From an uncultured Bacteroidia bacterium (GTDB lineage: Bacteria > CAIWAD01 > BS150m-G50): a stretch of 64,000 bases of DNA. How positions within the stretch are numbered: position 1 is the first letter of the stretch; every line of letters starts with the position of its first letter. Shown here piece by piece: positions 19,673 to 54,875 of this stretch. The translations under genes and the position numbers were made by a program. Below the pieces are notes generated by a model. The model searched no databases and was not told where the DNA came from. It was given only the letters and a program-made list of their open reading frames with translations. The stretch covers positions 10-64,009 of the forward strand of contig CAZFEC010000008.1 of NCBI GenBank assembly GCA_964517435.1, given 5' to 3'.

Positions 19673-20026
19673 CGCGCGGTGCGGCCTGATCGTCCCAGTT
19701 CCCCACCAGGGCAACGGATGCGCCTGTCCAGCTGCTATCCTCACCGGAGCACATTTCTTTCAACCGTTGAAAAGCCTGTGCAGTCATCGGTTTGACGCAG
19801 CAGCGCTCTCTCCGTGGTTGGCATAGCCCTCTTGCGGCCGCTTTGTGATCGATTAAGCCTCACATCTGTTGCAGGAACAATACCATGCAGATAATTGCTC
19901 CCGCGCGGATGAATCCTCCTGCGAAAGCAAAACACCACCTCTCAACGCTGGCACGCATTTTGCCATAAGTCCTTTTTGAGAACCTGAAAGCTGTGTGACA
20001 GCACGTTTTAGAAAGAAGGAACTATC

Positions 20027-22189
20027 GTGATATATCGCGTTTTACTCATCGCTTCGCTGCTGCTGCCGGGAACGGCAAGCCTGGCGGCCATGCTGCATGC
20101 AAACATCGTCGACGAAGCGGGGCAGGGCATCCCCGGTGCCAATCTGGTGGTTGTTGGAAGCACCATCGGTACCGCCAGTGATCTGGAGGGTAGAGCCTAT
20201 CTGCACAACCTGCCGCCCGGCACCCATACCATCGAAGTCAGCTGCATCGGCTACGAAACCATAAGTGTTGAATACACCCTGAATGCCCCCGACATCCTGG
20301 AACCGGTTCTGGTGCTGAAGTCCACCGTGCTGGATCTGGAGGAGGTGGAGGTCAGCGGTCAGGCGCCGGACGGCCTCGATGTCCGCGGCACCCGCACCGT
20401 CGAGCGGATCTCGGGCGCTGATCTGCAGGCCGCTGCCGGCGGCGGCGGTGCCCTGGAGATAATCGGTGAAAGCAGCGGCGTGGATACGAAACCGTGCGGT
20501 CTCTGCGGGTCTTCCGGGGTTGGACTGCAGGGATTGGACCCCTCCTACACCGAGGTGCAGGTGGACGGGCTGGCTTTGCTCAGCGGCGTCGGTTCGCTCT
20601 ACGGCATGGAATCGATCCGAACGCAGGGACTGGCCGCGGTCGAACTGCAGCGGGGCAGCACCAATCCCGCCCAGGGCGGCAGTGCCATCGCCGGCAGCGT
20701 CAATCTGCAGAGTTCCCAGGTCGCGGAAACCGATACCCTGCAGTTGCATTTCGCGCTGGGTGACGGTTATCGTCATGAAACCGGCCTCACCATCGAGCGG
20801 CACCTGCTCCTGCCCACCCGGCTCGATCTAAACTGGTCGGCCGATCCGCTACGCCTGGATCGCGACGGCGACCGGCTTACGGACACTCCGCAACAGGGCC
20901 GGCTGCAGGGTCGCTTGGACCAGCGGGCGCGGATCCGCGACTCGCAGTGGAACTGGTCCCTGCGGGCGCTGGATGAAGCGCGTTTCGCCGGCGATGTTGA
21001 CTGGGAGACGAGCGATCGCGGCAGCGCGGCGGTCTACGGACGCGACATCCGGATCAAACGTCTGGAGGCTGTCCTGCACGGGAAATGGCGGGATGGCGGC
21101 GGCCGGGACTGGAAGCTGTCGCAGGCCTGGGTGGAGCACCGGCAGGACTCCTGGTACGGATCCACCGCCTTCGACGCGCAACAGCAGCGCGGCCTGTTCA
21201 AACTGGAGTCGGCGCTGAACGCGCTGGGTGGGCGGCACCGGCTGGAAACCGGCTACACCTGGGACCGCTACGATGACAATCTGAACCTGACGGAGGCGAC
21301 CGACCGCCTGGACCGGATTCCCCACTTTTTCTACGGACACGCCCGGCAGCTGGGATCCCAACTGGCGATCGACGGCGGTTTTCGCCTCGAGTACCATGCC
21401 GAGGATGGCCTGGTGCCGCTATTGCGCGGTGCCCTGCGCTGGCAATGGCACCCACAGTTCAGTATGCAGCTGGGCGCCGGACAGGCTTTCCGGCAGATCA
21501 CGCTGTTCAGTCTGGATAAGGCCGTTCACGCCGGTTTCGATGGTGTAACCCTGGCCCATGCGCTGAAACCGGAACGCTCCTTTGCTTTGAACTACGCGCT
21601 GAACTGGGAACAGGTGGGGCTGGCCGCCAGGTATCGCCTCAACCTGGGACTGTTCGCGACCGAATTCCGGGACAAGGCGATCCTGGCTTACACCGACGAG
21701 AACGGTATTGTGGAATACTCCAATGCGCAGGAAGCCTGGAGTCGCGGTTTCACCCTGGCCAAGGACTTCGCCTGGGTGAGCGGCTGGCACAGCCGGCTCA
21801 ACTACAGCTGGGCGCGCGTGCGCTATCTCCAGGACGGCAGCTGGCACGAGGAGCACATGGTGAACCGCTGGACCGCATCGGCACAGCTGGACTACGCTTT
21901 CCAGGCCGCGCAGGCGAGCGCCGGATTGAAGTGGAAATCCTTCGGGCCGCAGAAGCTGCCCGCCGGCAGGTCCCGCTCGGAATCCCCCGTCTGGCATACC
22001 CTGGATCTGACCCTGGCCAAGCGGTTCCTGAACTGGCAGGTTGGTTTCGATGTCGAGAACCTGCTGGATTGGACCCAACCAGATTCTCCCTTTATCCACA
22101 ACGAAGATGGGGAACTGATCGATTCGGCGTTGATCTACGGTCCGTTGATCGGACGGCGGCTGCGTCTCCGGCTCAATCTCGGCTGGTAA
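20027..22189 (+). CDS. TonB-dependent outer membrane receptor with N-terminal carboxypeptidase-regulatory-like domain
   Basis: GTG start with AGGA Shine-Dalgarno. Signal peptide, CarbopepD_reg-like N-terminal domain, plug, beta-barrel with a C-terminal aromatic residue (NLGW). Confidence 0.8.
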   Translation: MIYRVLLIASLLLPGTASLAAMLHANIVDEAGQGIPGANLVVVGSTIGTASDLEGRAYLHNLPPGTHTIEVSCIGYETISVEYTLNAPDILEPVLVLKSTVLDLEEVEVSGQAPDGLDVRGTRTVERISGADLQAAAGGGGALEIIGESSGVDTKPCGLCGSSGVGLQGLDPSYTEVQVDGLALLSGVGSLYGMESIRTQGLAAVELQRGSTNPAQGGSAIAGSVNLQSSQVAETDTLQLHFALGDGYRHETGLTIERHLLLPTRLDLNWSADPLRLDRDGDRLTDTPQQGRLQGRLDQRARIRDSQWNWSLRALDEARFAGDVDWETSDRGSAAVYGRDIRIKRLEAVLHGKWRDGGGRDWKLSQAWVEHRQDSWYGSTAFDAQQQRGLFKLESALNALGGRHRLETGYTWDRYDDNLNLTEATDRLDRIPHFFYGHARQLGSQLAIDGGFRLEYHAEDGLVPLLRGALRWQWHPQFSMQLGAGQAFRQITLFSLDKAVHAGFDGVTLAHALKPERSFALNYALNWEQVGLAARYRLNLGLFATEFRDKAILAYTDENGIVEYSNAQEAWSRGFTLAKDFAWVSGWHSRLNYSWARVRYLQDGSWHEEHMVNRWTASAQLDYAFQAAQASAGLKWKSFGPQKLPAGRSRSESPVWHTLDLTLAKRFLNWQVGFDVENLLDWTQPDSPFIHNEDGELIDSALIYGPLIGRRLRLRLNLGW

Positions 22190-24039: not shown

Positions 24040-25037
24040 TCAAGGCATACGCGGCACTGGAACCTGGCAGGGAACTCACACCTTTCGAATACGATCCAGG
24101 CGGACTGAAGCCTGAAGAGGTGGAAATCGATGTCCACTACTGCGGCATCTGTCACAGCGACCTGAGCGTAATCGATAACGCCTGGGGTGGCACCCTCTAT
24201 CCCGTCGTGCCGGGGCACGAGGTGGCCGGCGTGATTGCCGCCATCGGTGATGAGGTTACGCGGCTGGCGGTCGGGCAGCGGGTTGGTCTGGGCTGGCACG
24301 CCGGCTACTGCAACAACTGTCCGCAGTGCCGGAGCGGCGACCACAACCTTTGCGGCGACTCCACGGCGACTATTGTCGGGCATCACGGCGGTTTCGCCGA
24401 CAAAGTGCGCGCGGCCGCTAACAGCGTCATACCGATCCCGGATGGTATCGATCTGGCGACCGCCGGTCCGCTGTTCTGCGGCGGTATCACCGTCTTCAAT
24501 CCCCTCGTACAGTACGCCGTCCGACCCACCGACCAGGTGGCGGTGATCGGTATCGGCGGCCTGGGCCATCTGGCTCTGCAGTTCCTCAACGCCTGGGGCT
24601 GTAAAGTAACCGCATTCACCTCCAGCGCGGCCAAGCAGCGGGAAGTACTGCAGCTGGGCGCCCACCACAGCCTCGATTCCCGTGATCCGGAAGCGATCGC
24701 GACGGCTGCCGGCCGTTTCGACCTGATCATCTCCACGGTAAATGTCAAACTGGATTGGGATCTCTATCTGAGTACGCTCAAACCACGCGGCCGCCTGCAC
24801 CTGGTGGGGGCGGTGCTGGATCCCCTCGACATCCACGCGTTTTCACTGGTCATCGGTCAGCGCTCGCTGTCCGGGTCACCGGTGGGCAGTCCGGCTACCA
24901 TGGCCAGGATGCTTGAGTTCGTCCGCCGCCATGATATCAAACCGGTTGTCGAACTGTTTAAGTTCGCTGAGGTCAATGAGGCGATCGCCAGGCTGCGGAG
25001 TGGCCGGACGCAGTACCGCATCGTGCTGCATCACTGA
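24036..25037 (+). CDS. Zinc-dependent alcohol dehydrogenase, NADP-dependent (YahK/cinnamyl-ADH-like)
   Basis: GICHSDL catalytic Zn motif, structural Zn Cys cluster (CNNCPQCRSGDHNLC), Rossmann GIGGLGH. ATG 24036 overlaps the previous stop (ATGA). Confidence 0.85.
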   Translation: MIKAYAALEPGRELTPFEYDPGGLKPEEVEIDVHYCGICHSDLSVIDNAWGGTLYPVVPGHEVAGVIAAIGDEVTRLAVGQRVGLGWHAGYCNNCPQCRSGDHNLCGDSTATIVGHHGGFADKVRAAANSVIPIPDGIDLATAGPLFCGGITVFNPLVQYAVRPTDQVAVIGIGGLGHLALQFLNAWGCKVTAFTSSAAKQREVLQLGAHHSLDSRDPEAIATAAGRFDLIISTVNVKLDWDLYLSTLKPRGRLHLVGAVLDPLDIHAFSLVIGQRSLSGSPVGSPATMARMLEFVRRHDIKPVVELFKFAEVNEAIARLRSGRTQYRIVLHH

Positions 25038-25060
25038 TACGGAGCTGCGGCGAAAGGAAG

Positions 25061-26608
25061 ATGGAGAGTCTTATGGAATCGAGTATAAGGAACCGGATCG
25101 CCTGTTTCTTTTTGGTCGGTATGATCAGTAGTTGCTTCGCAACCTCCGTCGGCGCGGAAGTGGAAGCGGACCGATTCGAGTTGCTCCGCGCTCATATCCA
25201 AACCTGGCTGGCCGGCGTGGAGCGTGAGGAGCTACTCATAACCTCAGCCGCACTGCAGGAAGAGATTGCGGCCGACTGGTCCCGGCAGCGCGAGCACTAC
25301 CAGATCATCAGCGTACGCTGGCCCGAGCACTACCATACTGCCGGACATATCCCGCGGGCTGAGAACATTTACTGGGTCGACCTGATGCAGGCGGAGAACC
25401 TGGAGAGGCTCGAGCGAGATAAAATGCAGATACTCTACTGCTACTACGGACACGGCAGCATGATCTCCGCCGTCATGCTGAACCTGCTCGGGATCGAGTC
25501 GCGTAGCCTTGACGGAGGCATGATGACCTGGAATGAGGAAGCCATGGTGAAGGAACCCTGGGACCGGGAAGCGGATTACGCAGTTGAGACGACCTACCGC
25601 CAGCCGGTCGTCGGCTATTCATTGCCAGAACTATCGGGTGAGGCCATCACGATCACTGAGTTGGTGACCGAGCGGGCCTGGGCCTACCTGGGCGGGGAGG
25701 GATCGCCCGTGATCCAGGCGGCGGCGCTCAAGGAGATCGTCGACGTTTGGGAAGAGCGGGGGGGAGACTACCAGATCGTCGATGTGAGATTGAAAGCGGA
25801 ATACGCAGATGGTCATGTTCCGTATGCCCTGCACATCCCCTGGCGATCACTGGCCGACCTTGTATCACTAGGGCGCCTCGATCCCGCCAAAACCGCGATC
25901 GTATACTCCTACAACGGTCAACTGGGGCAGATGGCGGCAACGCTGCTCAACCTGCTTGGGTATCCGTCGGTCAACCTGCTGTTCGGTATGCTGGACTGGA
26001 ACCTGGCTCAGGTAGCGGAGGAATACTATTGGAAGACCGCAGCCGGGTACCCGATCAAGGGAGCTGGAATCAAGATAGACCGTACTACCATTACGCCGGC
26101 AGTTACAGCAAGTCAATCTGAGGAGGCTGAGATGAGTTTGACGATTACCTCCAGCGCCTTCGAACCGGGTGGTGAGATCCCCGCCCGTTACACCTGTGAT
26201 GGAGAGGATGTTTCTCCGCCGCTCACCTGGACGGGCATCCCGGACGGAGCGCAGAGTCTGGTGCTGGTTGTCGACGACCCAGACGCGCCCGACCCGGAGG
26301 CGCCGCGGATGACCTGGGTGCACTGGGTGCTGTACAACCTGCCGCCTGACGCGAAAGGTTTACCGGAGGCGGTCACGAGCGACGACCTGCCGGTTGGCAC
26401 GCGGGAGGGACTCAACGACTGGAAGCGTACCGGCTACGGCGGACCCTGCCCGCCTATCGGCCGTCATCGTTACTTCCACAAGCTCTACGCGCTCGATCAA
26501 CAGCTGCCGGACCTGGGCGCGGCGACCAAGACGGAGCTGGAAGCGGCGATCTCGGGACACATCCTCGGGATGGCGGAGCTGGTGGGAACCTGCGAGCGGA
26601 CGCGCTAG
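25061..26608 (+). CDS. Fusion protein: two rhodanese-like domains plus C-terminal YbhB/YbcL (PEBP/RKIP) domain
   Basis: N-terminal signal peptide. First rhodanese domain has a Cys (ILYCYYGHG), second has none. C-terminal 160 aa resemble YbhB/YbcL (CPPIGRHRYFHKLYALD). Internal AGGAGG-N5-ATG at 26132 lies in-frame at the domain boundary. Confidence 0.7.
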   Translation: MESLMESSIRNRIACFFLVGMISSCFATSVGAEVEADRFELLRAHIQTWLAGVEREELLITSAALQEEIAADWSRQREHYQIISVRWPEHYHTAGHIPRAENIYWVDLMQAENLERLERDKMQILYCYYGHGSMISAVMLNLLGIESRSLDGGMMTWNEEAMVKEPWDREADYAVETTYRQPVVGYSLPELSGEAITITELVTERAWAYLGGEGSPVIQAAALKEIVDVWEERGGDYQIVDVRLKAEYADGHVPYALHIPWRSLADLVSLGRLDPAKTAIVYSYNGQLGQMAATLLNLLGYPSVNLLFGMLDWNLAQVAEEYYWKTAAGYPIKGAGIKIDRTTITPAVTASQSEEAEMSLTITSSAFEPGGEIPARYTCDGEDVSPPLTWTGIPDGAQSLVLVVDDPDAPDPEAPRMTWVHWVLYNLPPDAKGLPEAVTSDDLPVGTREGLNDWKRTGYGGPCPPIGRHRYFHKLYALDQQLPDLGAATKTELEAAISGHILGMAELVGTCERTR

Positions 26609-31242: not shown

Positions 31243-32289
31243 TCAAGCGACCGCGATACCCTCACCGTCGGTCACCTCACCCACCACGGCGCAGAGATGA
31301 CCCGCCGCTTCGAACCGTTCCTGCAACTTCTCCAGCTGCTCCGACGGCACCGCCGCCAGCAGGCCACCGGAGGTCTCCGGCGTGAAGAGCAGCATCCGTT
31401 TTTCCTCGCCGATATTCGCGGCAAATTCCACCTGCGGTTCGAAGCAGGTCTGGTTGTGACAGGATCCAGCCGGGAAGAACCAGTCCGCCGCGTAGTCGTG
31501 CGTCCCCGGCAGCAACGGCAGGCGATCAAAGTGCAGATTGAGACGGACACCGCTGCCGTCGGCCAGCTCCAGTCCATGCCCGAGCAGGCTGAAACCGGTG
31601 ACGTCGGTGCAGCAGATAACACCCGCTTCGCGCAGGAGGCGGGCGGCATCGCGGTTAAGCTGCTGCATGGATGTCACCGCGTCCGCCAGGTGTTCCGGCA
31701 GGGCGGCGTCTCCCTTCGCAGCGGTGGTGATAAGTCCGGTCCCCAGTGGTTTGGTCAGCAGCAGCCGGTCGCCGGAACGGGCGCCGTTGTTGGTGAACAG
31801 CCCCTCCGGATGCACGAGACCCATCACCGCCAGTCCGTATTTCGGTTCCGGGTCGCACACGGTGTGCCCCCCCGCCAGTACACCCCCCGCTTCGGCGACC
31901 TTGTCCGCTCCGCCCCGGAGGATCGCCTGCATGATCTCCGGATCGAGATCGGAGGGGAAACCGCAGATGTTCAACGCCAGCACCACTTCGCCCCCCATGG
32001 CGTAGACATCGCTCATGGCGTTGGCGGCGGCGATGCTGCCGTACTCGTAGGGATCATCCACCACCGGTGTGAAGAAATCGAGGGTTTGTATCACGGCCGT
32101 ATTGTCGTCAATGCGATACACCGCCGCGTCGTCACCCTCGGCCAGCCCGACCAGCAGAGCGGGGTGATCGCCGGCCGGGAATCGCTCCACCATCGGCTTG
32201 AGTACTTCCGCCAGAACCTCCGGCGCCATCTTGGAGGCTCATCCGGCTGCCGTGGTGAGCGAAGTCAACCGTACTTTCTTACTGGTCAT
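31243..32289 (-). CDS. selD: Selenide, water dikinase SelD, selenocysteine-containing (in-frame UGA at 32239..32241)
   Basis: The 328-aa ORF body is SelD (AIR-synthase-like). Reading upstream on the minus strand gives ATG(32289)-MTSKKVRLTSLTTAAG-TGA-ASKMAPEVLAEVL. This aligns with E. coli SelD 6[25 protein letters not shown], and the TGA falls on catalytic Cys17. GGAGG lies 7 nt upstream of ATG 32289; none precedes the ORF-track start at 32229. Confidence 0.85.
32214..32240 (-). promoter_or_regulatory. Candidate SECIS-like hairpin at/after the selD UGA
   Basis: mRNA GAGCCUCC-AAGAUGGCGCC-GGAGGUUC, an 8-bp stem with one G·U, starting within the UGA. Confidence 0.35.
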
Positions 32290-32343
32290 TGTACATCCTC
32301 CGTACCGGGTGTGCATCCATCTGCAACCGGCAGCGTTACTCCC

Positions 32344-32574
32344 TCAAGGGACGTCATGACAGGCACCGATATCCAGGTTGCCTTGAAGCAGGATCTCCTG
32401 CGCCAGCTTCCGGTCCTCGAGCTTCACCCGCACGCAGACGCCGCAATCGGAACTCAGGTGACGCGGGACCGGGATCAGGCGGCACTCGCAACCAGCCCGT
32501 TTCAACAGCCGCTCTCCCTTGAGGGCGTGGCTGGTGGTCGGTACCAGAAAAACCGTATATTTGTTTTCAGTCAT
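32344..32574 (-). CDS. DUF3343 (putative Se/S carrier-like) protein
   Basis: Start at ATG 32574 (MTENKYTVFLVPTTSHALKGERLLKRAGCECRLIPVP). Family is typically linked to selD/yedE. Confidence 0.65.
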   Translation of the reverse strand: MTENKYTVFLVPTTSHALKGERLLKRAGCECRLIPVPRHLSSDCGVCVRVKLEDRKLAQEILLQGNLDIGACHDVP

Positions 32575-32605: not shown

Positions 32606-33763
32606 TCAATCGTTCCTCTCCGCCGCCGCAACCTCTGCGACCGCCGCCAGCGTGGTTTCGATCTCCCCCGCCGTCGTGAAAACACCGGGGCTCAGGCGCA
32701 CGGTGCCGGCGGGAAAGGTGCCAAGCGTGCGGTGCGAAGCGGGAGTACAATGTAAACCGACCCGGCACAGAATACCATGCTCCTCTTCCAGCCGCAGGCC
32801 GGTGGTGGAAGGGAGCTGATCCGCGATGGTGAAAGAGACCGCGCAGGTACGCTGTTCCGCCCGCGCCGGACCGTAGGCCGTAACGCCCGGAATCTCCCGC
32901 AATCCCTTCTGCAGTCGGTTCACCAGATCCGCTTCCCGCTGCTGTAGCTGTGCGATTCCCTGCCCCCGCAGCCAGTCGAGCGCCGCGCCCAAGCCCGCCA
33001 GGCCGGGTGCGTTGCGGGTGCCGCTTTCGTAGCGGTCCGGCAGCTGATCCGGCTGCGACTCCCGTTCCGACCAGCTGCCGGTGCCCCCGCGTGTCAGCGG
33101 CTGCAGACGTTCACAGTCAACCCGCTCGCCGATCACCAGACCACCGGTGCCGGACGGTCCCAGCAAACCCTTGTGCCCGGTAAACGCCAGCAGATCGATC
33201 CGATCCTGCTGTATATCGACCGGCAGGACCCCGGCACTCTGAGCGGCGTCGACCAGCAGCAGTAGATCGTGCTCCCGCGCGAAACGGCCGACGGCGGCAA
33301 CCGGCTGCACGGTCCCGATGATGTTGGACGCGTGGTTGAGTGCGATCAGCACCGTGTTCCTGCGCAGCGCCGGCGCCAGGTCAGCCGGATCCAGTTCGCC
33401 GGTAGCGGAGCAGGGCAGGACCGTCAGTTCGACACCCAGCTCCTCCAGCCGGCGCAGCGGACGCATCACGGAATTGTGTTCCATGCTGCTGGTAATCACA
33501 TGGTCGCCGGGACGGAGATAGCCGGCCAGCGCCAGGTTGAGACTTTCGGTGGCGTTCTGGGTGAACACCACCCGCAACGGGTCCGGTTGGCTGAACAGAC
33601 CGGCCACCGCTTCCCGCACGGCATAGACACCACGACCCGCTTCCAGAGACAACCGGTGTCCGGAGCGGCCCGGGTTGCCGCCGATAGCGAGCATCTCGAT
33701 CATCGCCGTCGCCACGCCGTCCGGCTTCGGCCAGGAGCTGGCGGCGTTGTCGAGGTAGATCAC
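32606..33763 (-). CDS. Cysteine desulfurase / selenocysteine lyase family (class V aminotransferase)
   Basis: GTG start overlapping the upstream stop (GTGA). Class-V aminotransferase fold with a PLP Lys region (FTGHKGLLGPSGTGGL). Confidence 0.8.
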   Translation of the reverse strand: MIYLDNAASSWPKPDGVATAMIEMLAIGGNPGRSGHRLSLEAGRGVYAVREAVAGLFSQPDPLRVVFTQNATESLNLALAGYLRPGDHVITSSMEHNSVMRPLRRLEELGVELTVLPCSATGELDPADLAPALRRNTVLIALNHASNIIGTVQPVAAVGRFAREHDLLLLVDAAQSAGVLPVDIQQDRIDLLAFTGHKGLLGPSGTGGLVIGERVDCERLQPLTRGGTGSWSERESQPDQLPDRYESGTRNAPGLAGLGAALDWLRGQGIAQLQQREADLVNRLQKGLREIPGVTAYGPARAEQRTCAVSFTIADQLPSTTGLRLEEEHGILCRVGLHCTPASHRTLGTFPAGTVRLSPGVFTTAGEIETTLAAVAEVAAAERND

Positions 33764-33969
33764 TCTTCTATCGTTAATCGGAAACCATCCTCTCTGTTAT
33801 CCACCTTCACTCTGTATCCCCGGCTCTCGGCCAGGCGTCGCACATTCTCGCGGGAGGCGACCGAATCGACGATCACCTCCACGAGCAGATCACCCGCCTC
33901 CAGCGCTCGCTTGGTCAGCAGCACCGGCTGGGGACAGGAAAGCCCGCTGGCATCCACTATTTGCGTCAT
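33760..33969 (-). CDS. TusA/YedF-like sulfur(selenium)transferase
   Basis: 69 aa with the CPxP motif (GLSCPQPVLLTKRAL); GAGAGGA Shine-Dalgarno. Confidence 0.75.
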   Translation of the reverse strand: MTQIVDASGLSCPQPVLLTKRALEAGDLLVEVIVDSVASRENVRRLAESRGYRVKVDNREDGFRLTIEE

Positions 33970-34020: not shown

Positions 34021-35148
34021 TCAGACTCGTTCGCGCATCGTAAACCCGATCACCACGCAGACAACCAGGCCCAGCAGTACGGCGATCATGCCGGCCGTAT
34101 TGATACCACCGACCTGGACGACTCCCGCCACCAGCTTGTCCGGTCTGGCGGCCAGCGCGAAGTTATGCGCGAAAGCGGCGCCGGTGAGCATGCCCAGCAC
34201 GAAAATGCCGGCATCGCCGTCACCCTCTCCGCTCAGGAACAGCTGGCGACCGGGGCAGCCGCCGGCCAGCAGGAAGGCCAGCCCCGACAGCACCATCCCC
34301 AGGAAATTCCAGAAGTAGTTGGAATGGGCTACCGGTTGGGCCGCAACGCCGAAGCCCACCTGACCGAGCAAAAGGTTGGTGATGAAAGCGACCACGGCCA
34401 GCGTGATGACACCGGTCAGCAAATGAAAATCGCGGATCAGGATAGAGTCGCGGAAGGCGCCCATGGTGCAGAAACGGGTGCGCTGCGCCAGGAAACCTAT
34501 CAGCAGCCCCGCACCGAGTGAAATCAGCAGCGGTGCGTGCATTGCGCCGGGACCTTTCAGGCTGAAGAAAACGGCACCACCCTCGCTGAATTGCGGGCGC
34601 AGGATCACCAGCAGCAACAGACCGACCATCAGGAACGGCATCACCCAGCCGGCGGCGGCTTTGGTTCTGAACGCCCGCCCCAGGCTGTAGCCACGGCGGA
34701 GAAACAGGGTGCCAACCCAGATGCCGGCGCTGAGTCCCGCCAGACCGATCACGGCGTTCAGATCGCCGCCCGCCAGGCGCAGCAGGGCGCGCCAGGGACA
34801 ACCGAGAAATGCCAGTGCGCCGATCATGGCGAAGCCGCCCAGCAGAAAGCGGATCAGCGGTGCCGAACCGCCGCGGGCCCGGAACTCCCGGAAGAGCAGG
34901 GCGGCGACCAGCGAGCCCAGCACGAAGCCGACCAGCTCCGGCCGGATGTACTGGACGACGCCCGCCCGGTGCAGTCCCAGCGCGCCGGCGATATCCCGTT
35001 CGAAACAAGCGACGCAGACACCCATGTTGGGCGGATTACCCAGCTTCTGGAGCAGCGGCGCGAGCACGCCGATCACGGCTCCGGCCAGGATAATACCCCA
35101 GCGTGAGGCAAAGAAAGCGGTTAGATTTTCGGATCGATTCGTAGGCAT
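34021..35148 (-). CDS. YedE/YeeE family membrane protein (putative selenium/sulfur transporter)
   Basis: Polytopic membrane protein with two conserved Cys-containing half-motifs (GVCVACFERD and RFCTMGAFRD). Start set at ATG 35148. Confidence 0.75.
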   Translation of the reverse strand: MPTNRSENLTAFFASRWGIILAGAVIGVLAPLLQKLGNPPNMGVCVACFERDIAGALGLHRAGVVQYIRPELVGFVLGSLVAALLFREFRARGGSAPLIRFLLGGFAMIGALAFLGCPWRALLRLAGGDLNAVIGLAGLSAGIWVGTLFLRRGYSLGRAFRTKAAAGWVMPFLMVGLLLLVILRPQFSEGGAVFFSLKGPGAMHAPLLISLGAGLLIGFLAQRTRFCTMGAFRDSILIRDFHLLTGVITLAVVAFITNLLLGQVGFGVAAQPVAHSNYFWNFLGMVLSGLAFLLAGGCPGRQLFLSGEGDGDAGIFVLGMLTGAAFAHNFALAARPDKLVAGVVQVGGINTAGMIAVLLGLVVCVVIGFTMRERV

Positions 35149-35679
35149 GTAGACCTCCGGTTGGGCGCGGCCCTTCGCGCTGACCGGAGATCTCCGGCGG
35201 TCAGAGCGGGAAGGCGGCGCGTGGTTTGGCAATTGAGAACCTGACCGGTTCCCGGCACGCGCTTCAGATTTGGTGTGACATCAGGGTGTGATACATTGCT
35301 CTTTCCTGGTTGGCTGCGCAGAGCACCATGGTTACCGGGCGATTGCGCGGGTTTCTTAACGGTAAAAAGATTGAACAACCGGTTCTACCGATCAAGCATT
35401 ATCTCATTCACACAAAGCGGATCCGGCGATCGGCGATATCCTCTGGACCTGGCCGGATCGGCTGGTATTGCTGACTTCCATCATCCATATACCGTTCCAT
35501 CCAGTAACTGCCGGGTTGCTAGTTGAAGGTGGGTTAGATACCTTCTCAATTGAGTTGATCGACAAATGTGAGACGTAGACAGTGAAGAAAAAGCAGGGAA
35601 GCAGGGAGCGGATGTCACGCGGTTCGGAACCTTTCGTTCGAAGTGAAGGCCGGGTACCGCCTGTAAGCCGACAGGGACA

Positions 35680-36069
35680 GTGAACAGGTTGCGCCACGCC
35701 TTTTCGGCGCTGATCCTGGTCCAGGCGTTGCATGCCGTCGAGAAATACTATGGGCGGCTGTGGGAGCTGCTGCCGCCGGTCCGGTTCATCTGCAATCTGG
35801 TTGCTCATGATCCGGTACCAGGCTTCCTCCTGCTCAACAGCCTGTTTCTGCTGTTCGGTCTCTGGTGCCGGCTGTGGCCGGTCGGTCGGCAGTGGCGTTG
35901 GTGGCGCATCTGGCTCTGGCTCTGGATTGTGATTGAAATCATCAACGGTCTGGCTCATATCGGTCTGGCATTATGGCACGGCGGTTATTTCCCCGGCCTC
36001 TACACGGCGCCGCTGCTGTTGCTGATCGCCGGCTGGCTGGTGTTCCAACTGGGAAGCCGTCCGAGTTGA
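35680..36069 (+). CDS. HXXEE-like small membrane protein
   Basis: GTG start. HAVEKYYG early, Trp/Arg-rich helices; the protein has no internal Met. Confidence 0.35.
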   Translation: MNRLRHAFSALILVQALHAVEKYYGRLWELLPPVRFICNLVAHDPVPGFLLLNSLFLLFGLWCRLWPVGRQWRWWRIWLWLWIVIEIINGLAHIGLALWHGGYFPGLYTAPLLLLIAGWLVFQLGSRPS

Positions 36070-46953: not shown

Positions 46954-49900
46954 TCACTTCAACAGCATCATCTTGCGGGTCTGGTTGAGGTGCTCGCTCT
47001 GCACCCTCAGGAAGTAGACACCGCTGGCCAGGTTCCCCGTCTCCCGGCTGTCGAAAACCAGCACCTGGTGACCCGCCGGCAGGTAGCCGTCCCAGAGTTG
47101 CGCCACGCGCCGGCCCAGCACATCGTAAACGGTTGCCCGCAGGTGTTCGCCCGTCACCAGGGTTAGGTCGAAGCTGGTAACCGGATTGAAGGGATTGGGA
47201 TAGGGGTGGGAAAGCGTCCAGACATCGGGTGTCGTCAGCGGCTCACGCGTGCCGGTCAGCAGCAGGAAACGGCCGCCGTGGTTCACCTCTGTGTGAAGGT
47301 TCCCCGACTCGCTGTCACGATATGTATCACACCAGACCGTATCTCCCGCTTCCACACGGTAAATGCCATAGTGGCACTCCTCCGGTGCGCCTGCCGGTAC
47401 CGTAAAGGTGATGCGCACCGCGCCCGGCAGCTGTAACGGCAGCAGGTCGAATCCGGCGGTGCCGTCTGGAGTGAGATCGTGTATCACATAGCGGGTAGCG
47501 ACGGGAATATCCCGGCACAAACGCAATCGGTATTCATCCCCCGGTCCGGGCAGCAGATCACCGGCCGCCTGCATGTAGTTGCTGCTGATCAGCAGCGTAT
47601 CCTGTGTCACGTTACCCGCCAGATCGACGGCGGTTAAACCGATGACCACGTCGCCGGTACCGATGAAGAGATAACTCCCCAGATAGAGATCATAGGCATC
47701 CGGCTCGGTTCCGCTCTGGATCAACTCGAAAGTGACCGAACCGCTGCTCGCTGAAGCCGCCAGGGGCGGGGTAAGCGGCTCATCCACCATCACCAGCAGA
47801 TCGAGGTACTCATTCACGGCCGGATTGGGCAGAATCCCCGGGCTCAACGTCGGGGGGATGTTCTCCAGCGACACCACCAAGAGCGGGCCGCTGTCGCTGT
47901 TGCCGTCGTTGTCGAGTACGGTCACTTCCGCGACGGTGTTGTCGTGGAAGAGTGAATCCGGCTCGATCACCAGACAGTCGGCGTCCGGCAGATAGGTGAT
48001 GGCGACGGAATCGATCACCGCGATCTCCCATTCGAGGTACTCATCGGGGGAGTCGGGATCGTAGACATAACCGGAGAGATTCCGGAGCGTGTCGCTGCTG
48101 CCGGCGCGCAGGGTGACGGGCGGCAGCGTGTAGAGCTGCGGGGCGGCGCCGGCTGTCACCTGAAAGCGCCACCAGGCCGCAGCGGTATCACCATCCGGAT
48201 CCTCCACCGCGAAGAGGAGACTGTCACTGCCGGTGATCATCAGCGAGTTGAATGTGACACAACGTGATACAGTGTCCAGAATCGCTTCCACCAGGTTCCC
48301 GCCGCTCCAACTCCAATCGAGACTGGTGACGGGATCATCGTGATCGTAGACATAATCGTCCAGCGGCCAGGGACCGGAGGTGGTCAGCGTGGACAACGTC
48401 AACTCCGGGAAATCGAATATGAGCGGTACGCCGGTCGTGTCGATCACCAGCAGACGGCAGTCGTCGCCGGTCAGGTTGGAATCAGGATCGAAACAGTAGA
48501 AGGCGATGTCGGTAAGGCTGCCGGGCGTGAGGGGCGCGGTAACCTGAACCAGATGGCTGGCCGGGTCGACCGACACCTGGAAGGGCGCGGGATCGGTGAA
48601 CGCCCAGGTCATCTGGTCCGGATCGTGATCGAAATCCCAGACATGGTCGTCCAGATCGAGGTGGTTGTCCACCTCACCCGGGAGCAGTAGCAGATCGGGC
48701 AGGGCGGCTGCCTGCGGCAGTCCATTGTAGAGGAGAACCGCCGTAACCGCCGCGGTCGCGCTGTTCTGATCGGGATCGGTAACGGTGAACTGCAGCTCCT
48801 CCCAGCCCTGTGTCGCCGGCGACGCGCTGAGCGTAGCCACATGTGTCACACTGTTGATCTGAACCGAGACCAGGTCGCCGCTGCCGGCGGACCAGCTCAG
48901 TTGCGAATCGGCGTGATCGGCGTCGGCAACATAATCATCCAGATAAAGCAGTTCGCCGGTTCCGTTGTGTAACACCTGGGCCGGGATGACGGCCAATACC
49001 GGCGGCGCGCTGGCAACCTGCACGATCAGCGTGTCCTGGTCCTGCAGCGGTTCCGGATCGCTGACCGTCAGCAGATAGGGAAAAGACTGGCCGATCAGCG
49101 AGACGGCGGTGGTGAAGAAGCGGAGTGTTCCCTCGTAGGTATCCACCACGGTCGAGATGCTGTCATGCGCGCCCGCCAGGGTCCAGATCATCTCCTGCCA
49201 GTCGTGATCGGGGTCGTAGACCAGGTCCGGCAGCTGGAGGACCAGCTCGCTGCCGGGGTGCAGCGGGAACAGGAGCGGTTCGGTAAGCAATGGTGCGTCG
49301 TTGACCGGCGTTACCTCCAGCGGTATAAAAGAAGTATCCGCCAGGCCCAGGGGATCGCTGACGATAAAAGTGACGCTGTCGCTGCCGCTCCAGTTCAGGG
49401 GCGGGGTCAGTCGCGCCCGGTGCGACACCGGATCAATCGCGAGCGTCACCAGGCTCTGTTCCGGCACCGCGTAGGTCAACCAGCCGGCGGCATGGTCGTT
49501 GTCGGTCACGAAGTCATCCAGGACGAGCGAGCTGTCGACGTCATCTTCCGCCCAGCTTACCAGCGGCAGCGGTTCCGCAACCTGGGGCGCGTCGTCACAC
49601 AGCACGGCCAGCGTGTCCACGGCGGCGGTCAAGTCGGGCGCCGTAGCTTGAATCGCCACCTCCAGCCAGGCCGGCGTTACCGGCAGGCGGTTGAAGATGA
49701 ACAGGAAGGCCTCGCTGTCTACCCGCACCGTGTCGATGGTGGCCGAGTTACCGCCGGCCAGCACCTCATAGCTGATGACGAATTCCGAATCGGGACAGAA
49801 GAACGCCTCCAGGTGATCGTAGAGGTTCAGGGTGTCGCAGGGCTGGAAAGTCGTCAGCTGCAGATCGGGCAGGGGCGGGTAGAAAGCGAAACCGGCGATT

Positions 49901-50478
49901 TCAATGTAGGGGACCGTTTCGAGGTTGAAGCTCCACTCGGCACCGCTCTCCGCCTGCCAGTACAGCGTGTTGCGGAACTCCAGGTTGTCGTGATCGACGG
50001 TAACGGGTCTCCCCGCGAATTCGCTCAACGCCCGCACCCGGAAACGCAACGCGTCGGCGGCGTTGGCGCAGCTGGGGCGCGGTTCGTCCCCCTGACCGGT
50101 CTGTATGATGTAATCGAGTTGCGTGCCCGGAATGCCGTTGCCGGGATCGTCGTGGGTGTGGTTGGCCAGGACGACGGCACCACCACAGGGTGCGAACCAG
50201 CCCTCGCCCACCTGCTGGAAAGGCGAATCGTCATCGCCCGGCACCAGCTGCAGGATACCCTCCTGCAGGGTCAGCATGATCTGGAAGCCGGTCAGCAGCT
50301 CGGCGTGTGAATCGATGTGCAGGTAGAGGTCGGTTTCCTCGCCCATGTGCAGGAAGAGGCTGTCCCGGCCGTCGACGGTGTGCAAACGCAGATCGCTGAA
50401 ACCTTCGTCGCGCGTCGCCAGAGCCGCGCCGGCGAATGTGATACAGAACAGGATTGTCAGCGGGAGGAGCCGTCTCAT
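46954..50478 (-). CDS. Giant secreted protein with cadherin-like repeats and C-terminal T9SS sorting domain
   Basis: ATG 50478 overlaps the upstream stop (ATGA). Signal peptide. At least six repeats carry LDDYVxDxDHxxxxLxWS, plus VNDAP. C-terminus ...HPYPNPFNP...GVYFLRV... is T9SS type-A CTD-like. Confidence 0.7.
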   Translation of the reverse strand: MRRLLPLTILFCITFAGAALATRDEGFSDLRLHTVDGRDSLFLHMGEETDLYLHIDSHAELLTGFQIMLTLQEGILQLVPGDDDSPFQQVGEGWFAPCGGAVVLANHTHDDPGNGIPGTQLDYIIQTGQGDEPRPSCANAADALRFRVRALSEFAGRPVTVDHDNLEFRNTLYWQAESGAEWSFNLETVPYIEIAGFAFYPPLPDLQLTTFQPCDTLNLYDHLEAFFCPDSEFVISYEVLAGGNSATIDTVRVDSEAFLFIFNRLPVTPAWLEVAIQATAPDLTAAVDTLAVLCDDAPQVAEPLPLVSWAEDDVDSSLVLDDFVTDNDHAAGWLTYAVPEQSLVTLAIDPVSHRARLTPPLNWSGSDSVTFIVSDPLGLADTSFIPLEVTPVNDAPLLTEPLLFPLHPGSELVLQLPDLVYDPDHDWQEMIWTLAGAHDSISTVVDTYEGTLRFFTTAVSLIGQSFPYLLTVSDPEPLQDQDTLIVQVASAPPVLAVIPAQVLHNGTGELLYLDDYVADADHADSQLSWSAGSGDLVSVQINSVTHVATLSASPATQGWEELQFTVTDPDQNSATAAVTAVLLYNGLPQAAALPDLLLLPGEVDNHLDLDDHVWDFDHDPDQMTWAFTDPAPFQVSVDPASHLVQVTAPLTPGSLTDIAFYCFDPDSNLTGDDCRLLVIDTTGVPLIFDFPELTLSTLTTSGPWPLDDYVYDHDDPVTSLDWSWSGGNLVEAILDTVSRCVTFNSLMITGSDSLLFAVEDPDGDTAAAWWRFQVTAGAAPQLYTLPPVTLRAGSSDTLRNLSGYVYDPDSPDEYLEWEIAVIDSVAITYLPDADCLVIEPDSLFHDNTVAEVTVLDNDGNSDSGPLLVVSLENIPPTLSPGILPNPAVNEYLDLLVMVDEPLTPPLAASASSGSVTFELIQSGTEPDAYDLYLGSYLFIGTGDVVIGLTAVDLAGNVTQDTLLISSNYMQAAGDLLPGPGDEYRLRLCRDIPVATRYVIHDLTPDGTAGFDLLPLQLPGAVRITFTVPAGAPEECHYGIYRVEAGDTVWCDTYRDSESGNLHTEVNHGGRFLLLTGTREPLTTPDVWTLSHPYPNPFNPVTSFDLTLVTGEHLRATVYDVLGRRVAQLWDGYLPAGHQVLVFDSRETGNLASGVYFLRVQSEHLNQTRKMMLLK

Positions 50479-53400
50479 TGCAGATGCATCACTTTGCGGG
50501 TGGCTCGATGTTCGGGAGTCACAGCCTGGAGGAAATAAAGCCCGGCGGCGAAACTCTCCGCCCGCCATTGCAGCTGATAGCTGCCGGGAACGATTGTATC
50601 ACGGTACAGCACTTCCACCTGCTGGCCGAGGATGTTGTATACCGCCAGACGCAGCGAAGTTGTTTCGTAAACGACCAGGGGAATGGTCAGACTGCTGTTG
50701 AAGGGGTTTGGCCAGGGAGGCGGCAGCTCGAAAGCGAGCGGTGGCGCCGTAACCACGCCGCTGGTGGTGCGGAAGGCGGTGTCGACGGAATGACCCTCGA
50801 GCAGCAGAACCGGCAGACCGCTGCCGGTGGGCAGGGTGAACCGCGCCAAAGCCAGTTCACCGCTGACGCCCGGACTCTGACCGTAGCGGGCTACGGCCAG
50901 CAGGAGTCGATTGCCGTGGGTTTGTATCACGGACTGAGCTTCGGTGTCGAACAGTTCGCACAGCTGCAGATCGGTGACTGCGCCCGGCGGCAAAGCCAAC
51001 CGGGCACTCCAGCCGATCAGATCGCTGGCCGGCGCGATGACCAGGGTCCAGGTCGTGTATTCTCCGGCCGGTTGCCGCTCCAGCTGCCAGACCGGAGTGG
51101 CGTTGTGACCGCGGCGATAGACCGGCGGCACGCCGCTGCTGTTCAGGTTTGTCGTGCAGAGGGTCAGATCGGTGATATAGACCAGCTCATCTCCATCAAA
51201 GTCACAGTAGGAGTTCCAGCCGGCGGAATCAGGCGTACTGCCGTAAGCTTCCACGATGGCGTTGAGGTCGGTGGCGTCGATCTGGTTGTCCGGGAGGACG
51301 GTGTCGCTGCTGTCGACGTAACCGGCGCAGTCACCGGCGATCAGCTGCAGCAGGTCGACATCCTCGGAGTTGAAGTGCGGATTTACCCCCTCCAGCAGAT
51401 CGCCGTGTTGAATGTCGAACGGGTAGTAGCCGCTGAGCCAGCCCGGTACGCTCGCTACCAGTTCCCAGCAGCCGTCCGGCACCGAATGCAACTGGTAGGT
51501 GCCGTCGGTTCCCAGCTGCACCTGTACGCCGGCCGCGGCCGGATCGATGTCGTTCTGGTTGAACAGCGAATCGGTCACCGGCAGCCAGGATCCCGGCTCA
51601 CGCAGGATCAGCGTGGATTCGAGACCGTTATAATCGCGCCCCTGCAGCTGGACGTGTCCCGAAACCCGGCCGCGCGACCAGGTATACGAAATAGCCGCCG
51701 GCGACTGGATGGTGGTGCCCAGAAGTTCGCCATCCTGGTAGAAACTGGTGAAGCGGTTGGCCTCGTCGTCCACCGCGAAGACCAGGTTGTCGATGGTGGC
51801 GCCGGTAGCGGGATCGCGGCGGGGCAACAACTGCAGCGTGCAGAGCAGGTGGGTGCCGTCACTGAACTCCGGCACCGGAGCGCCGTTTTCAAAGTAGGTG
51901 AAATCGAGGTGATGGCGACCGTTGCTGAGGTCGCCCCCGTGATTGTCGTTTTCCAGTATGCTCGCTTCCTCGAAGTCAGGTCCGAGCCGGAAGGGTGACG
52001 TGAGCGAAACGATATCGAAAGCGACCGTGTCCACGTCGACATAGAGGCTGATCATGTCGGCTGTGATCACGCCCGCCTGCGGATAGATCGAAACGGTGAC
52101 CGTGTCGCCGGGAAAGGTGTCGAAGCGGTAAGGCCGCATCTGCAGGTTGTAGCAGATATTGCCGCCGAAGCCGTTGATCGCCAGCGTACCCGGCGCTGTA
52201 AAGACCGGGTCGGCGGCGTCCGGTTCCTGGCCGGCGGGATTGCTGCTGACCAGTAGAAAGACGTGATACGTCTCATCGCCGGCGTCTTCCAACGGTATAC
52301 CCTCCCCGACCGAAGGTCCGGTCATGGTATTGGGCAGGAACTCCCAGGTGGTGATGTCGCCGGCCGGCGTATCGAGATGCTGGTCGATCGTGCCATCCTG
52401 TGAATTCATCACCCAGAGATTCGGCACCGACGTAGTCAGGTCGAACCAGGTCGCTTCCGGCAATTCGCAGCCCGTATCTCCCAGCAGCAGGAAGAGCTGC
52501 TGATGTTCGCCGCCGAAATTCCAGGCGTAGACCCAGCGCACCAGATAACTGGCGTGAGCGGAGATCGCCGCTCCCAGGGGCGGCGGGTCGACCAGCATCA
52601 CATTAGGAGCCGCCTGGAACCGGAACGAAGTGATCGGTTCATCCTCCGCGAGGAAGTTGTCGTAACCATCCTCGAAGGAACCCAGCCGTCCGGTGACGCC
52701 GTCGTCGATGTGGGCGTAGAAATGCAGCCAGCCGCTGTGCGTGATGATCTGGTTGGCCAGCGCGGAGGGCAGGTCGGCCGGATGCCAGACGTACATGTTG
52801 TCCGGCTGCTGGTCGGGATCCTCGTGGATACCCTGCACCATCAGCTCGCCGTTAGCCAGCCAACCATCGGTCGCGGCCAGGGTGTCGATCAACAGGTCCA
52901 TGGTCGCCTGGCTGAAGTCCGCCAGGCTGTCATCGCTGGCGTCGATGTAGAGCGCGATCAGGGCGTCGTCGTCGGCGTCCCGGTCGCCGTCTACTGTCTC
53001 CCCCCAGTTGAAGGTGAAGCAGAAGTCCTCCCCCAGGTCGATGGTAGTCGCGGGGGGCGTTTGCAGATCGATCAGCGGCGTGTGATACACCGTCACCGGC
53101 GCCTCGCTCTCGCGCAACACCGCGTGACGGCCGTCACCAGCGACGGCGTAGACGCTGTACTGGCCTGCAGTCACCCATTCGCTGGCTGAACTGTAGACGG
53201 TCCAGGGATACTCCTGGTAGAGATCGACCGGCAGGGGAGCCGGTGTGATCGCTTCGCAGCCGGTTAAGCCCACTACTGTCAACGCTGGTGGTGAACCGCT
53301 GGTGACTATCGCGTTTGCCGTGATGCCGGCGGGACCGTAGAAAAGAGAAACCTCCGGCACGGAATCGAGATCCTCGGCGGCGAACTCCAACATCACCTGG

Positions 53401-54371
53401 GGTGTGCCGCTGCCGTCCGGAACGGCCGAAAGCGGATTATACAGGCGGCCGGAATCGAGGTGCAACTCGGTAGTGGGGTCCACAGCCAGCACTTCCGGAA
53501 AGTGATACACCCGCAACCAGCCGCTGTGGCCGACGCTGCGCTGCGTGGTCAGGGAGGATGCGGCGTAGAGGTAGTATGGCGCCGCCTCGTTTTCCTCCAG
53601 TGCGGCCGTCAGAACCGCCTGTTCAAGGGCACCTGCCGGCAGGTTGATCAAGGGTTGCCCCGCCAGGTCCACGGCGGCGAAAGCCTCCGCCGTGATCGAG
53701 GTCAGGGCGGGGTTGGTACTCCAGTAGAGCGAATAGGTGGCTCCCAGTACATCGCTGAGCGTCCCGCTGCAGGTAAAAGCGTAGCCGCCGTCCCCGCCGC
53801 AGGTCGCCGTTGAATCCTGCTGCGGCGCGGTGAAAACCGCCGCGGGACCGGGGATGGCGCTGATCAAACCGGCCACGGCCTGGGTGGTATCGATTTCGGC
53901 GGTACCGATCAACTGAACCGGCAGGGCCGGGACGGCCGCGGCGGTGGTTGTATCACAACAGGCGAAGAGGGCGAGGAAACGGATGTTGCCCCCGCCGCCG
54001 ATGCTGGTTTCGCACAGCAGCTGCAGAGTGTCGCCGGCGACCTGCAGCGAAAAGGCGCCGCCAATGTCGGTGGCGTCGATTTGCGCCATTCCATTCAACT
54101 GACTGTCAAACTGGAACTGTGACGGCAGCACGATCGTGATCGTCTCACCCGCGATGATGTCCTGACTCTGCTCAACCTGCAGGATCAGGTCGCGGCCGTG
54201 AAAAGCGGAAGTCGTGATGTCGACGGGAGTGTAGGGGCCGCCGCCGGTCAGGTAAGGCAGCTCTATCGCGGTGGCCGACAGCGATTGTGCCACGTTGACA
54301 GCGGCTGCCGCCGTTCCAGTGAACCACAGGCACAGCTGCATAGTCAGCCAGGCTTTAACGCGCAGTCGCAA
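50475..54371 (-). CDS. Giant secreted protein with dockerin-like segment and C-terminal T9SS sorting domain
   Basis: TTG start at 54371 with GAGGAG 5 nt upstream; signal peptide. Dockerin-like DFDGDELVYITDL. C-terminus PWPNPFNS...GLYFLQ... is a T9SS CTD. Confidence 0.7.
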   Translation of the reverse strand: MRLRVKAWLTMQLCLWFTGTAAAAVNVAQSLSATAIELPYLTGGGPYTPVDITTSAFHGRDLILQVEQSQDIIAGETITIVLPSQFQFDSQLNGMAQIDATDIGGAFSLQVAGDTLQLLCETSIGGGGNIRFLALFACCDTTTAAAVPALPVQLIGTAEIDTTQAVAGLISAIPGPAAVFTAPQQDSTATCGGDGGYAFTCSGTLSDVLGATYSLYWSTNPALTSITAEAFAAVDLAGQPLINLPAGALEQAVLTAALEENEAAPYYLYAASSLTTQRSVGHSGWLRVYHFPEVLAVDPTTELHLDSGRLYNPLSAVPDGSGTPQVMLEFAAEDLDSVPEVSLFYGPAGITANAIVTSGSPPALTVVGLTGCEAITPAPLPVDLYQEYPWTVYSSASEWVTAGQYSVYAVAGDGRHAVLRESEAPVTVYHTPLIDLQTPPATTIDLGEDFCFTFNWGETVDGDRDADDDALIALYIDASDDSLADFSQATMDLLIDTLAATDGWLANGELMVQGIHEDPDQQPDNMYVWHPADLPSALANQIITHSGWLHFYAHIDDGVTGRLGSFEDGYDNFLAEDEPITSFRFQAAPNVMLVDPPPLGAAISAHASYLVRWVYAWNFGGEHQQLFLLLGDTGCELPEATWFDLTTSVPNLWVMNSQDGTIDQHLDTPAGDITTWEFLPNTMTGPSVGEGIPLEDAGDETYHVFLLVSSNPAGQEPDAADPVFTAPGTLAINGFGGNICYNLQMRPYRFDTFPGDTVTVSIYPQAGVITADMISLYVDVDTVAFDIVSLTSPFRLGPDFEEASILENDNHGGDLSNGRHHLDFTYFENGAPVPEFSDGTHLLCTLQLLPRRDPATGATIDNLVFAVDDEANRFTSFYQDGELLGTTIQSPAAISYTWSRGRVSGHVQLQGRDYNGLESTLILREPGSWLPVTDSLFNQNDIDPAAAGVQVQLGTDGTYQLHSVPDGCWELVASVPGWLSGYYPFDIQHGDLLEGVNPHFNSEDVDLLQLIAGDCAGYVDSSDTVLPDNQIDATDLNAIVEAYGSTPDSAGWNSYCDFDGDELVYITDLTLCTTNLNSSGVPPVYRRGHNATPVWQLERQPAGEYTTWTLVIAPASDLIGWSARLALPPGAVTDLQLCELFDTEAQSVIQTHGNRLLLAVARYGQSPGVSGELALARFTLPTGSGLPVLLLEGHSVDTAFRTTSGVVTAPPLAFELPPPWPNPFNSSLTIPLVVYETTSLRLAVYNILGQQVEVLYRDTIVPGSYQLQWRAESFAAGLYFLQAVTPEHRATRKVMHLQ

Positions 54372-54875
54372 GCGGACTCCTCAAGCTTGGGCGAGCTTTG
54401 GAAAAGCCGTCACCGGCGAATCCTGGACAACAGGCACATCAGTACATTTCCAGCCCTGCTCGCTTTACATAATATGCAGCAAGAGCCATGCCAGCGCTCC
54501 AGCTCCGTCAACAGCACGTAAGCATTCTCCCATTGTGATAAATAACAAGGTGATACGACTGCGCAACTTCAGAATGGATGAACTTCCGGAGCCGTTTCGC
54601 AGAACGACAGGCGCGGTAAAGGTTTCCCCACCGGAAACAATTACCTGGAAACCTGATGTGTACCACCCCATGCTCGGGGCGACTCCGCCGGTTCAGGAAG
54701 TGGTTGTGTGCGGTACGCCGCCGCCTGGACCGCCAATCTTTTCCCTCGGCCGGCCGGTTACAAAAACTGTTGGCACTTCAGTTGATGATTTTACATATTG
54801 CCTGCAGAGAAGTGAGCGGAAGCGACGTGATACATTCGATCGGTTCAGTTATTGAATGAGAGTGATCCCGCGTCG

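Follow-up and report, generated by a model that had tools for sequence, protein, structure and literature searches.

How is a gene for selenophosphate synthetase read when an in-frame TGA stands at codon 17, in the column of Cys17 of the Escherichia coli enzyme? The question is raised by selD (selenide, water dikinase), encoded on the minus strand of a 64,000-nucleotide (nt) stretch of DNA from an uncultured Bacteroidia bacterium (contig CAZFEC010000008.1 of assembly GCA_964517435.1, positions 10 to 64,009), which is called the window in the following. An initial interpretation made from the letters of the window (the sequence-only reading) had claimed that selD codes for a selenoprotein whose N-terminus is missed by open reading frame (ORF) calling. 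The evidence assembled here makes it very probable that the gene encodes a SelD with selenocysteine (Sec) at residue 17, decoded by means of a selenocysteine insertion sequence (SECIS) element downstream of the UGA.

The anatomy of the 5' end of the gene was read directly from the sequence. In minus-strand order, ATG 32289 is followed by 16 sense codons MTSKKVRLTSLTTAAG, the TGA at 32241..32239, three codons for ASK and a second ATG at 32229, which opens the stretch MAPEVL. The first ATG (32287..32289) is preceded by a GGAGG Shine-Dalgarno motif at 32297..32301, exactly 7 nt upstream, and related genes begin at the equivalent position. We therefore regard it as the true start codon. The 25 nt 5' of the second ATG (32227..32229, codon 21) contain no Shine-Dalgarno motif and have CCTCC instead. 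On both points the sequence-only reading was confirmed. Most genes of this genome are preceded by Shine-Dalgarno-like motifs. From the first ATG the full-length coding sequence spans 31243..32289 on the minus strand and comprises 348 codons including Sec17, followed by a TGA stop at 31245..31243. This extent is borne out by its translation, by hidden Markov model (HMM) searches and by an ungapped alignment to E. coli SelD, and the sequence contains no further stop or frameshift. The GC content at third codon positions (GC3) of selD is 0.79, which is typical of the host genes.

The mechanical ORF list opens selD at 32229, and public gene callers made the same choice, mistaking the internal Met21 codon for the start. 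At least 24 contigs, drawn from JGI, ENA, Logan and NCBI, carry an identical 328-amino acid product. The gene is thus misannotated in public data, with its N-terminus cut off, as the sequence-only reading had suspected. The TGA itself is genuine. Over the 171 nt around it, six independent assemblies were base-for-base equal to the window (seven identical copies in all), and because of this agreement a sequencing or assembly error at 32239..32241 can be dismissed.

For family assignment, the 348-residue product was searched with Cys put in for the TGA. It scored 371 bits against the SelD equivalog model TIGR00476 (cut-off 125), with a match from residue 7, and 344 bits against a second SelD equivalog model, NF002098 (cut-off 299), with a match covering residues 2-342. 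Since the profile matches begin at residues 7 and 2, the 20 residues before the called start belong to the N-terminus of the SelD family. The AIRS N- and C-terminal domains (PF00586, PF02769) are both present in the called product. By these matches the gene is identified as selD, with ATP-dependent synthesis of selenophosphate as its predicted activity. The residue-for-residue correspondence with E. coli SelD that had been proposed from the sequence was reproduced against the structure 3u0o, where the alignment is gapless from residue 2. The TGA coincides with Cys17, Lys20 is retained, and the stretch TSKKVRLTSLTTAAG[TGA]ASKMAPEVLAEVL is the counterpart of the E. coli N-terminal segment. In the N-terminal glycine-rich loop, AAG[TGA]ASK of the window stands opposite GAGCGCK of E. 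coli, and the crystal construct of Aquifex aeolicus SelD has SSGCAAK in the same column. The Aquifex enzyme is presumably a selenoprotein in its native form, and we take both Cys17 and Lys20 to be essential in E. coli SelD.

The state of codon 17 was then compared among relatives, using the DNA of the 80 best species-representative genomes (L007-L086). These belong mostly to the Anaerolineae/Chloroflexota, and also to the Acidobacteriota, Spirochaetota, Fibrobacterota, Planctomycetota and Thermodesulfobacteriota. The Cys17 column contains TGA in 79 of the 80 genomes and TGC in the remaining one, a member of the Dehalococcoidia (L083), and in every case an upstream start and the conserved peptide IRLTxLTSAAG precede it. 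A TGT codon was found in the same column in a relative from the Armatimonadota (P0121; L090-L093, positions 6001-7047). The codons before the TGA were also examined for their substitution pattern. Across codons -11..-1, nucleotide identity to the relatives is 0.64, 0.90 and 0.30 at codon positions 1, 2 and 3, with an amino acid identity of 68%; for the 45 codons after the TGA, the values are 0.70, 0.72 and 0.40, with an amino acid identity of 56%. The pattern upstream is at least as coding-like as that downstream, indicating that the upstream stretch is under protein-coding selection in this frame. The window protein is distant from all of these sequences: the closest SelD in the databases is only 68% identical, and the nearest relatives (63-68%) are mostly from the Chloroflexota.

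At the protein level, 117 of the 120 closest sequences (P0001-P0120) in a collection of 5.8 billion proteins begin at the equivalent of residue 21, which would be strange if it were the genuine N-terminus. In the genomic DNA of the relatives, residue 21 is M, R, L, K, T, V or A, and because of this variability Met21 is not a conserved start. Re-initiation at a conserved internal AUG at codon 21 was considered and rejected on the same grounds, the methionine bias of the protein database being a gene-calling artefact. The database over-represents those SelD variants that happen to carry Met at residue 21. The whole SelD clade looks to be systematically misannotated as N-terminally truncated.

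If the UGA is to be decoded as Sec, a SECIS element is expected close behind it, and the sequence-only reading had proposed folding this region. A SECIS-type hairpin, CGCCGGA-GGU-UCUGGCG, is present at 32209..32225 on the minus strand, corresponding to +17..+33 counted from the U of the UGA, with the apical GGU at 32218..32216. It begins 13 nt after the UGA and has a stem of 7 bp without a bulged U. Its folding energy is -10.5 kcal/mol (z = -2.6), and 2 of 200 dinucleotide shuffles fold as well. Background frequencies were taken from all in-frame positions of 28 window genes. Only 0.57% of these positions are as stable over an equal span, and just 7 of 1500 positions (0.47%) carry, at +12..+41, a perfect stem of 6 bp or longer whose loop contains GU. 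The hairpin was further compared with the limits of the bSECISearch model as they are quoted in the legend to Fig. 2 of PMC13188914. The loop is GGU (3 nt) or AGGUU (5 nt) on a stem of 7 or 6 bp, within the quoted ranges of 3-9 nt for the loop and 4-16 bp for the upper stem. The quoted loop pattern N1 G [G|U] N N2, with N1-N2 pairing and a G in the first two loop positions, is matched by A-G-G-U-U with the A-U pair. The spacing from the UGA to the apical loop is 19-20 nt (loop from +23 or +24), within 16-37 nt, and the folding energy lies below the limit of -7.5 kcal/mol for the minimum free energy (MFE). The hairpin is therefore a candidate SECIS that fits all four constraints as given in that legend. 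In the MFE structures, a mutually exclusive lower helix was predicted at 32214..32240 on the minus strand, in which +2..+9, including the GA of the UGA, pairs with +21..+28.

Among the relatives, the region after the UGA has a different layout, with a first hairpin (H1) at +15..+28 and a second (H2) at +30..+46 (GGCGCAG-GUG-CUGCGCC). RNAalifold run on 79 post-UGA sequences returned no consensus structure, and pair counting and synonymous-site entropy were used in its place. By pair counting, 86.7% of the cells are paired, compared with 83.4% in shuffles (reached by 0 of 500) and 35-55% in slid registers. Double-sided compensatory cells number 27, where 7.9 would be expected, and the H2 helix is 93% paired. 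At codons +7 to +14, the third-base entropy of synonymous codons drops to 0.1-0.7 bits, except for 1.71 bits at codon +12, which lies in the H2 loop; beyond codon +14 it is back at 1.4-2.0 bits, the level found 5' of the UGA. The collapse of synonymous variation outside the loop codon, together with pairing above the controls, indicates that an RNA structure, namely a SECIS, is selected in the SelD clade.

The Cys-type SelDs (TGT in L090-L093, TGC in L083) are nested in the Sec-type clade with SECIS-like hairpins still present, and they look like recent Sec-to-Cys conversions. The TGT-type Armatimonadota gene retains both clade hairpins, and as a control for the Sec-specificity of the hairpins it was for that reason uninformative. 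Remnant SECIS elements after Sec-to-Cys conversion have been described (PMC1794560). The Armatimonadota gene matches this description, which argues that Sec is ancestral in the clade.

Several observations weigh against a Sec-decoded SelD in the window. The strongly conserved H2 of the clade is missing: the window has GAA GUA CUC AAG in place of CAG GUN CUG CGC, and over +30..+46, where the clade pattern is GGCGCAG-GUN-CUGCGCC, its sequence GGCGGAAGUACUCAAGC could form at most a weak structure of 3 + 2 bp. The hairpin criteria of the background test were picked post hoc, after the hairpin had been seen. When 42-66 nt after the UGA are folded as a whole, the MFE z-scores do not reach significance, so that only the local 21-nt hairpin stands out from the folding analysis. 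A scan of the window with Rfam at gathering thresholds yielded a tRNA-Leu only and no SECIS family. Covariation cannot serve as a test of the window hairpin, since the seven copies are identical and the nearest SelD, at 68% identity, has a different structure. Neither selA nor selB was found in the 64 kb of the window or in approximately 5.5 kb past its 3' edge, a segment that adds ExoVII, NAD kinase, FtsY and others. Over the same range no tRNA-Sec was found, in the window by ARAGORN or Rfam. A scan of the window for TGA-interrupted genes and CxxU-type small ORFs gave no credible second selenoprotein gene, and with respect to this window the proposal that other TGA-truncated ORFs deserve re-inspection came to nothing. 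The 12 long-segment and 7 Cys-context TGA candidates turned out to be either neighbouring genes that have starts of their own (17566, 43314, 59457) or spurious shadow-frame ORFs. The MsrBA fusion in the window has an ordinary GCFWG cysteine, and the remainder of the window consists of ordinary housekeeping and envelope genes.

The absence of H2 and the presence of a different hairpin at +17..+33 suggest SECIS turnover inside one orthologous family. Reassignment of UGA in the genetic code was rejected, because TGA is the commonest genuine stop, ending 26 of 44 long high-GC3 ORFs, selD itself included. Since TGA is also the main stop, decoding of the UGA at codon 17 must depend on its context. 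Taken together, the conservation of the TGA, the coding pattern around it and the candidate SECIS strongly imply that the organism decodes UGA as Sec.

A mechanism can be outlined for this decoding. Translation would begin at the Shine-Dalgarno-led ATG 32289. On reaching the UGA, the ribosome would melt the helix between +2..+9 and +21..+28 and so free its 3' arm for the SECIS hairpin, by analogy with fdhF of E. coli, which has a lower helix. The +17..+33 hairpin with its GGU apical loop would then become available to SelB loaded with GTP and Sec-tRNA(Sec), and Sec would be delivered at residue 17, in the loop AAG-U-ASK, in place of termination. The genes selA, selB and selC would have to be located elsewhere in the genome.

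Three other explanations were weighed. According to the first, the UGA is read through with another amino acid, either by a near-cognate tRNA for Trp or Cys, or as Cys via the Sec machinery under selenium scarcity, giving an enzyme with Cys or Trp at residue 17. Sequence computations cannot tell which residue is inserted, and Cys in this column is functional in many SelDs, as represented by L083 and the Armatimonadota gene. We nevertheless consider this explanation very unlikely: the long-term retention of TGA over TGC or TGT in 79 of 80 relatives, combined with a selected RNA structure downstream, is the signature of SelB-dependent Sec insertion, and at other sites in the genome TGA terminates translation efficiently.

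In the second explanation, the TGA is a nonsense mutation and selD a recently inactivated pseudogene, e.g. after horizontal transfer into a host without Sec decoding. This would be in line with the lack of Sec machinery and of other selenoprotein genes in approximately 70 kb, with a SelD whose nearest relatives are Chloroflexota in a host that looks Delongbacteria-like, and with the decay of the clade-consensus H2. We judge it to be still less probable. In this clade TGA is ancestral and no new mutation, and the gene has diverged by approximately 34% from any relative, yet its 348 codons are otherwise intact, its GC3 is host-typical and its N-terminal peptide is conserved. The other genes of its operon are intact as well, the sequence is identical across many samples, and H2 has been replaced by a well-formed hairpin that agrees with the bSECIS model as quoted in the legend cited above.

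The least probable explanation of all takes the annotated model to be right, with a 328-residue SelD lacking the N-terminal loop and the 16 upstream codons serving as an untranslated leader; an ATG does exist at 32229 and is chosen in the mechanical ORF list as well as in every public gene call, but it lacks the Shine-Dalgarno motif that most genes of this genome have, many relatives carry a residue other than Met at position 21 (R/L/K/T/V/A), the 11 codons upstream show a coding substitution pattern and 68% amino acid identity to the relatives, and the product would lose the loop with Cys/Sec17 and Lys20, which, according to mutagenesis of E. coli SelD, is reportedly essential for catalysis.

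A SelD with Sec at residue 17, the reading that we prefer, is also in keeping with the genomic surroundings of the gene. selD (31243..32289) is the last of five co-directional genes on the minus strand, separated by successive gaps of 51, -4, 31 and 54 nt. The first (34021..35148, 375 amino acids) encodes a putative selenium transporter of the YedE family and scored 477 bits against TIGR04112 (seleno_YedE, cut-off 200). The second (33760..33969, 69 amino acids) encodes a TusA/SirA-like sulfur/selenium transfer protein (PF01206, E = 8.5e-17). Against the YedF model TIGR03527 (SirA + DsrE) it remained below the cut-off, with 56 bits compared with 110, and matched only the N-terminal third of the model. 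The third product (32606..33763, 385 amino acids) is a class-V aminotransferase, an EF2568-type cysteine desulfurase or SclA-like selenocysteine lyase, with 440 bits against TIGR01977 (cut-off 377); its score against the SclA model NF040779 was 360 bits, below the cut-off of 525. The fourth (32344..32574, 76 amino acids) is a small protein of the DUF3343/Se_S_carrier type (PF11823, E = 5.5e-21, 74 bits compared with 25). YedE, YedF, Sec-lyase and DUF3343 have been recognized as a selenium-linked gene set by comparative genomics (Lin et al. 2015, PMC5322559). In the Cys-type Armatimonadota relative, the genes for desulfurase, DUF3343, YedF and SelD occur in the same order.

With a transporter, two carriers, a lyase/desulfurase and SelD, the five genes would form an operon for selenium uptake and activation with selD at its end. 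The enzyme supplies the selenium donor that its own Sec residue requires, so production of SelD would itself hinge on the selenium supply. Promoter and terminator scans of the operon gave nothing above background. An intergenic region of 540 nt (35149..35688) separates yedE from the divergent gene at 35689; it has no Rfam match and no promoter consensus and is likely the regulatory region of the selenium operon. At a distance of 5 kb from the operon, an unusual fusion protein is encoded on the plus strand (24980..26608), with two rhodanese domains, a C-terminal PEBP/YbhB (Raf-kinase-inhibitor-like) domain and a signal-like N-terminus.

Other genes of the window provided information on the host. 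The Lon protease (57123..59459, plus strand) is 83% identical to a protein from a metagenome-assembled genome of 'Candidatus Delongbacteria' and no more than 59% identical to all else. Two adjacent giant ORFs of 1214 and 1301 codons from stop to stop (46954..54380, minus strand) both carry Por_Secre_tail, the C-terminal sorting domain of the type IX secretion system (T9SS), in public gene calls. In the smaller, a Big_9 Ig domain is present as well, and no other family match was obtained for either. Together with a CarboxypepD_reg TonB receptor at 20012..22189, the giant ORFs point to an envelope of the FCB (Fibrobacteres-Chlorobi-Bacteroidetes) type. From the identity pattern of Lon, the T9SS sorting domains and the TonB receptor, the host looks to be an uncultured, deep-branching, Delongbacteria-like lineage. 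The relatives of SelD are mostly Chloroflexota, in contrast to the Delongbacteria match of Lon, and the selenium operon may be a horizontal acquisition.

Three further observations were made in the window. The long public contigs with the selD locus (76.6, 80.6 and 85 kb) all end approximately 9-73 nt from window position 1, a consistent assembly break at the 5' edge that possibly reflects a repeat or strain-variable region. A PHP-domain gene (59460..60410, plus strand) directly follows the TGA stop of Lon in the same frame. Its start is disputed in public calls, which give 316 amino acids, beginning with the codon after the Lon stop, or 271 amino acids; the short form is more likely, because GC3 is low in the first 50 codons. 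Read-through from Lon into this gene was rejected, as the match to Lon_C covers profile positions 2-203 of 205 and ends no more than 2 residues from the TGA stop. The gene for CheR (L089, 8656..9498, corresponding to window positions of approximately 55784..56626) is in two pieces of 192 and 70 amino acids in JGI 3300013112 and intact with 280 amino acids in other samples, and the split form may be due to a frameshift at strain level, to a nonsense variant or to faulty assembly.

Sec-containing SelD has long been known and is common (PMC4561486, PMC1794560, PMC13188914). Mariotti et al. (2015, PMC4561486) reported Sec for 19% of the SelD genes that they detected in reference prokaryotic genomes, "always in the same position," and remarked that genes for selenoproteins are misannotated in most cases. 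FdhA and SelD have the widest distribution among the selenoproteins of bacteria (Zhang et al. 2006, PMC1794560). By distribution, the Sec-SelD family ranks second. The present case is thus a known phenomenon correctly identified in a new organism, and the understanding of selenium biology is unchanged by it. Mildly new are the host lineage and the apparent replacement of the clade SECIS by a different hairpin. Our literature search found no paper pairing Delongbacteria with selenocysteine. As a tentative proposal, which we consider possible but on the doubtful side, the two-hairpin SECIS of the clade was replaced by a single fdhF-like hairpin nearer to the UGA, implying that a SelB of different specificity co-evolved with it, possibly after transfer of the operon, and SelD may be among the few selenoproteins, or the only one, sustaining the Sec trait in this organism. 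If true, this proposal would extend the use of Sec to a candidate phylum in which it is undescribed. The gene also offers what looks like a natural example of SECIS turnover within an orthologous gene family. For annotation, the correct product would be the 348-residue protein with Sec17, in place of the 328-residue form of every public copy, which is presumed to be catalytically dead. With the organism flagged as a Sec decoder, other UGA-terminated ORFs of its genome merit re-examination.

Compared with the Sec-SelDs of Deltaproteobacteria, Clostridia and Aquifex, the window protein is alike in its HMM family, in the UGA at the sole known Sec position, in Lys20, in a hairpin directly after the UGA and in being miscalled as N-terminally truncated. 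It differs from them in its deep-branching, Delongbacteria-like host and in an identity of at most 68% to any relative in the databases. In place of the E. coli SelD loop GAG-C-GCK it has AAG-U-ASK. The geometry of the candidate SECIS is close to that of E. coli fdhF, which we take to have its minihelix 11 nt after the UGA and the loop GGUC, compared with 13 nt and GGU in the window. Unlike the bSECISearch consensus and fdhF, the candidate has no bulged U. It also forms a single hairpin, whereas the relatives have the two-hairpin arrangement of H1 at +15..+28 and H2 at +30..+46. With regard to the operon, the clusters of YedE, YedF, Sec-lyase and DUF3343 (PMC5322559) and the selD-sclA operon of E. 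faecalis contain the same families, co-directional and tightly spaced with selD. In contrast to the YedF clusters (PMC5322559), the YedF-like protein of the window is a 69-residue TusA domain alone, with no DsrE domain and a score below the YedF cut-off. Its lyase differs from SclA systems in passing the EF2568 family model and not the SclA 'exception' cut-off.

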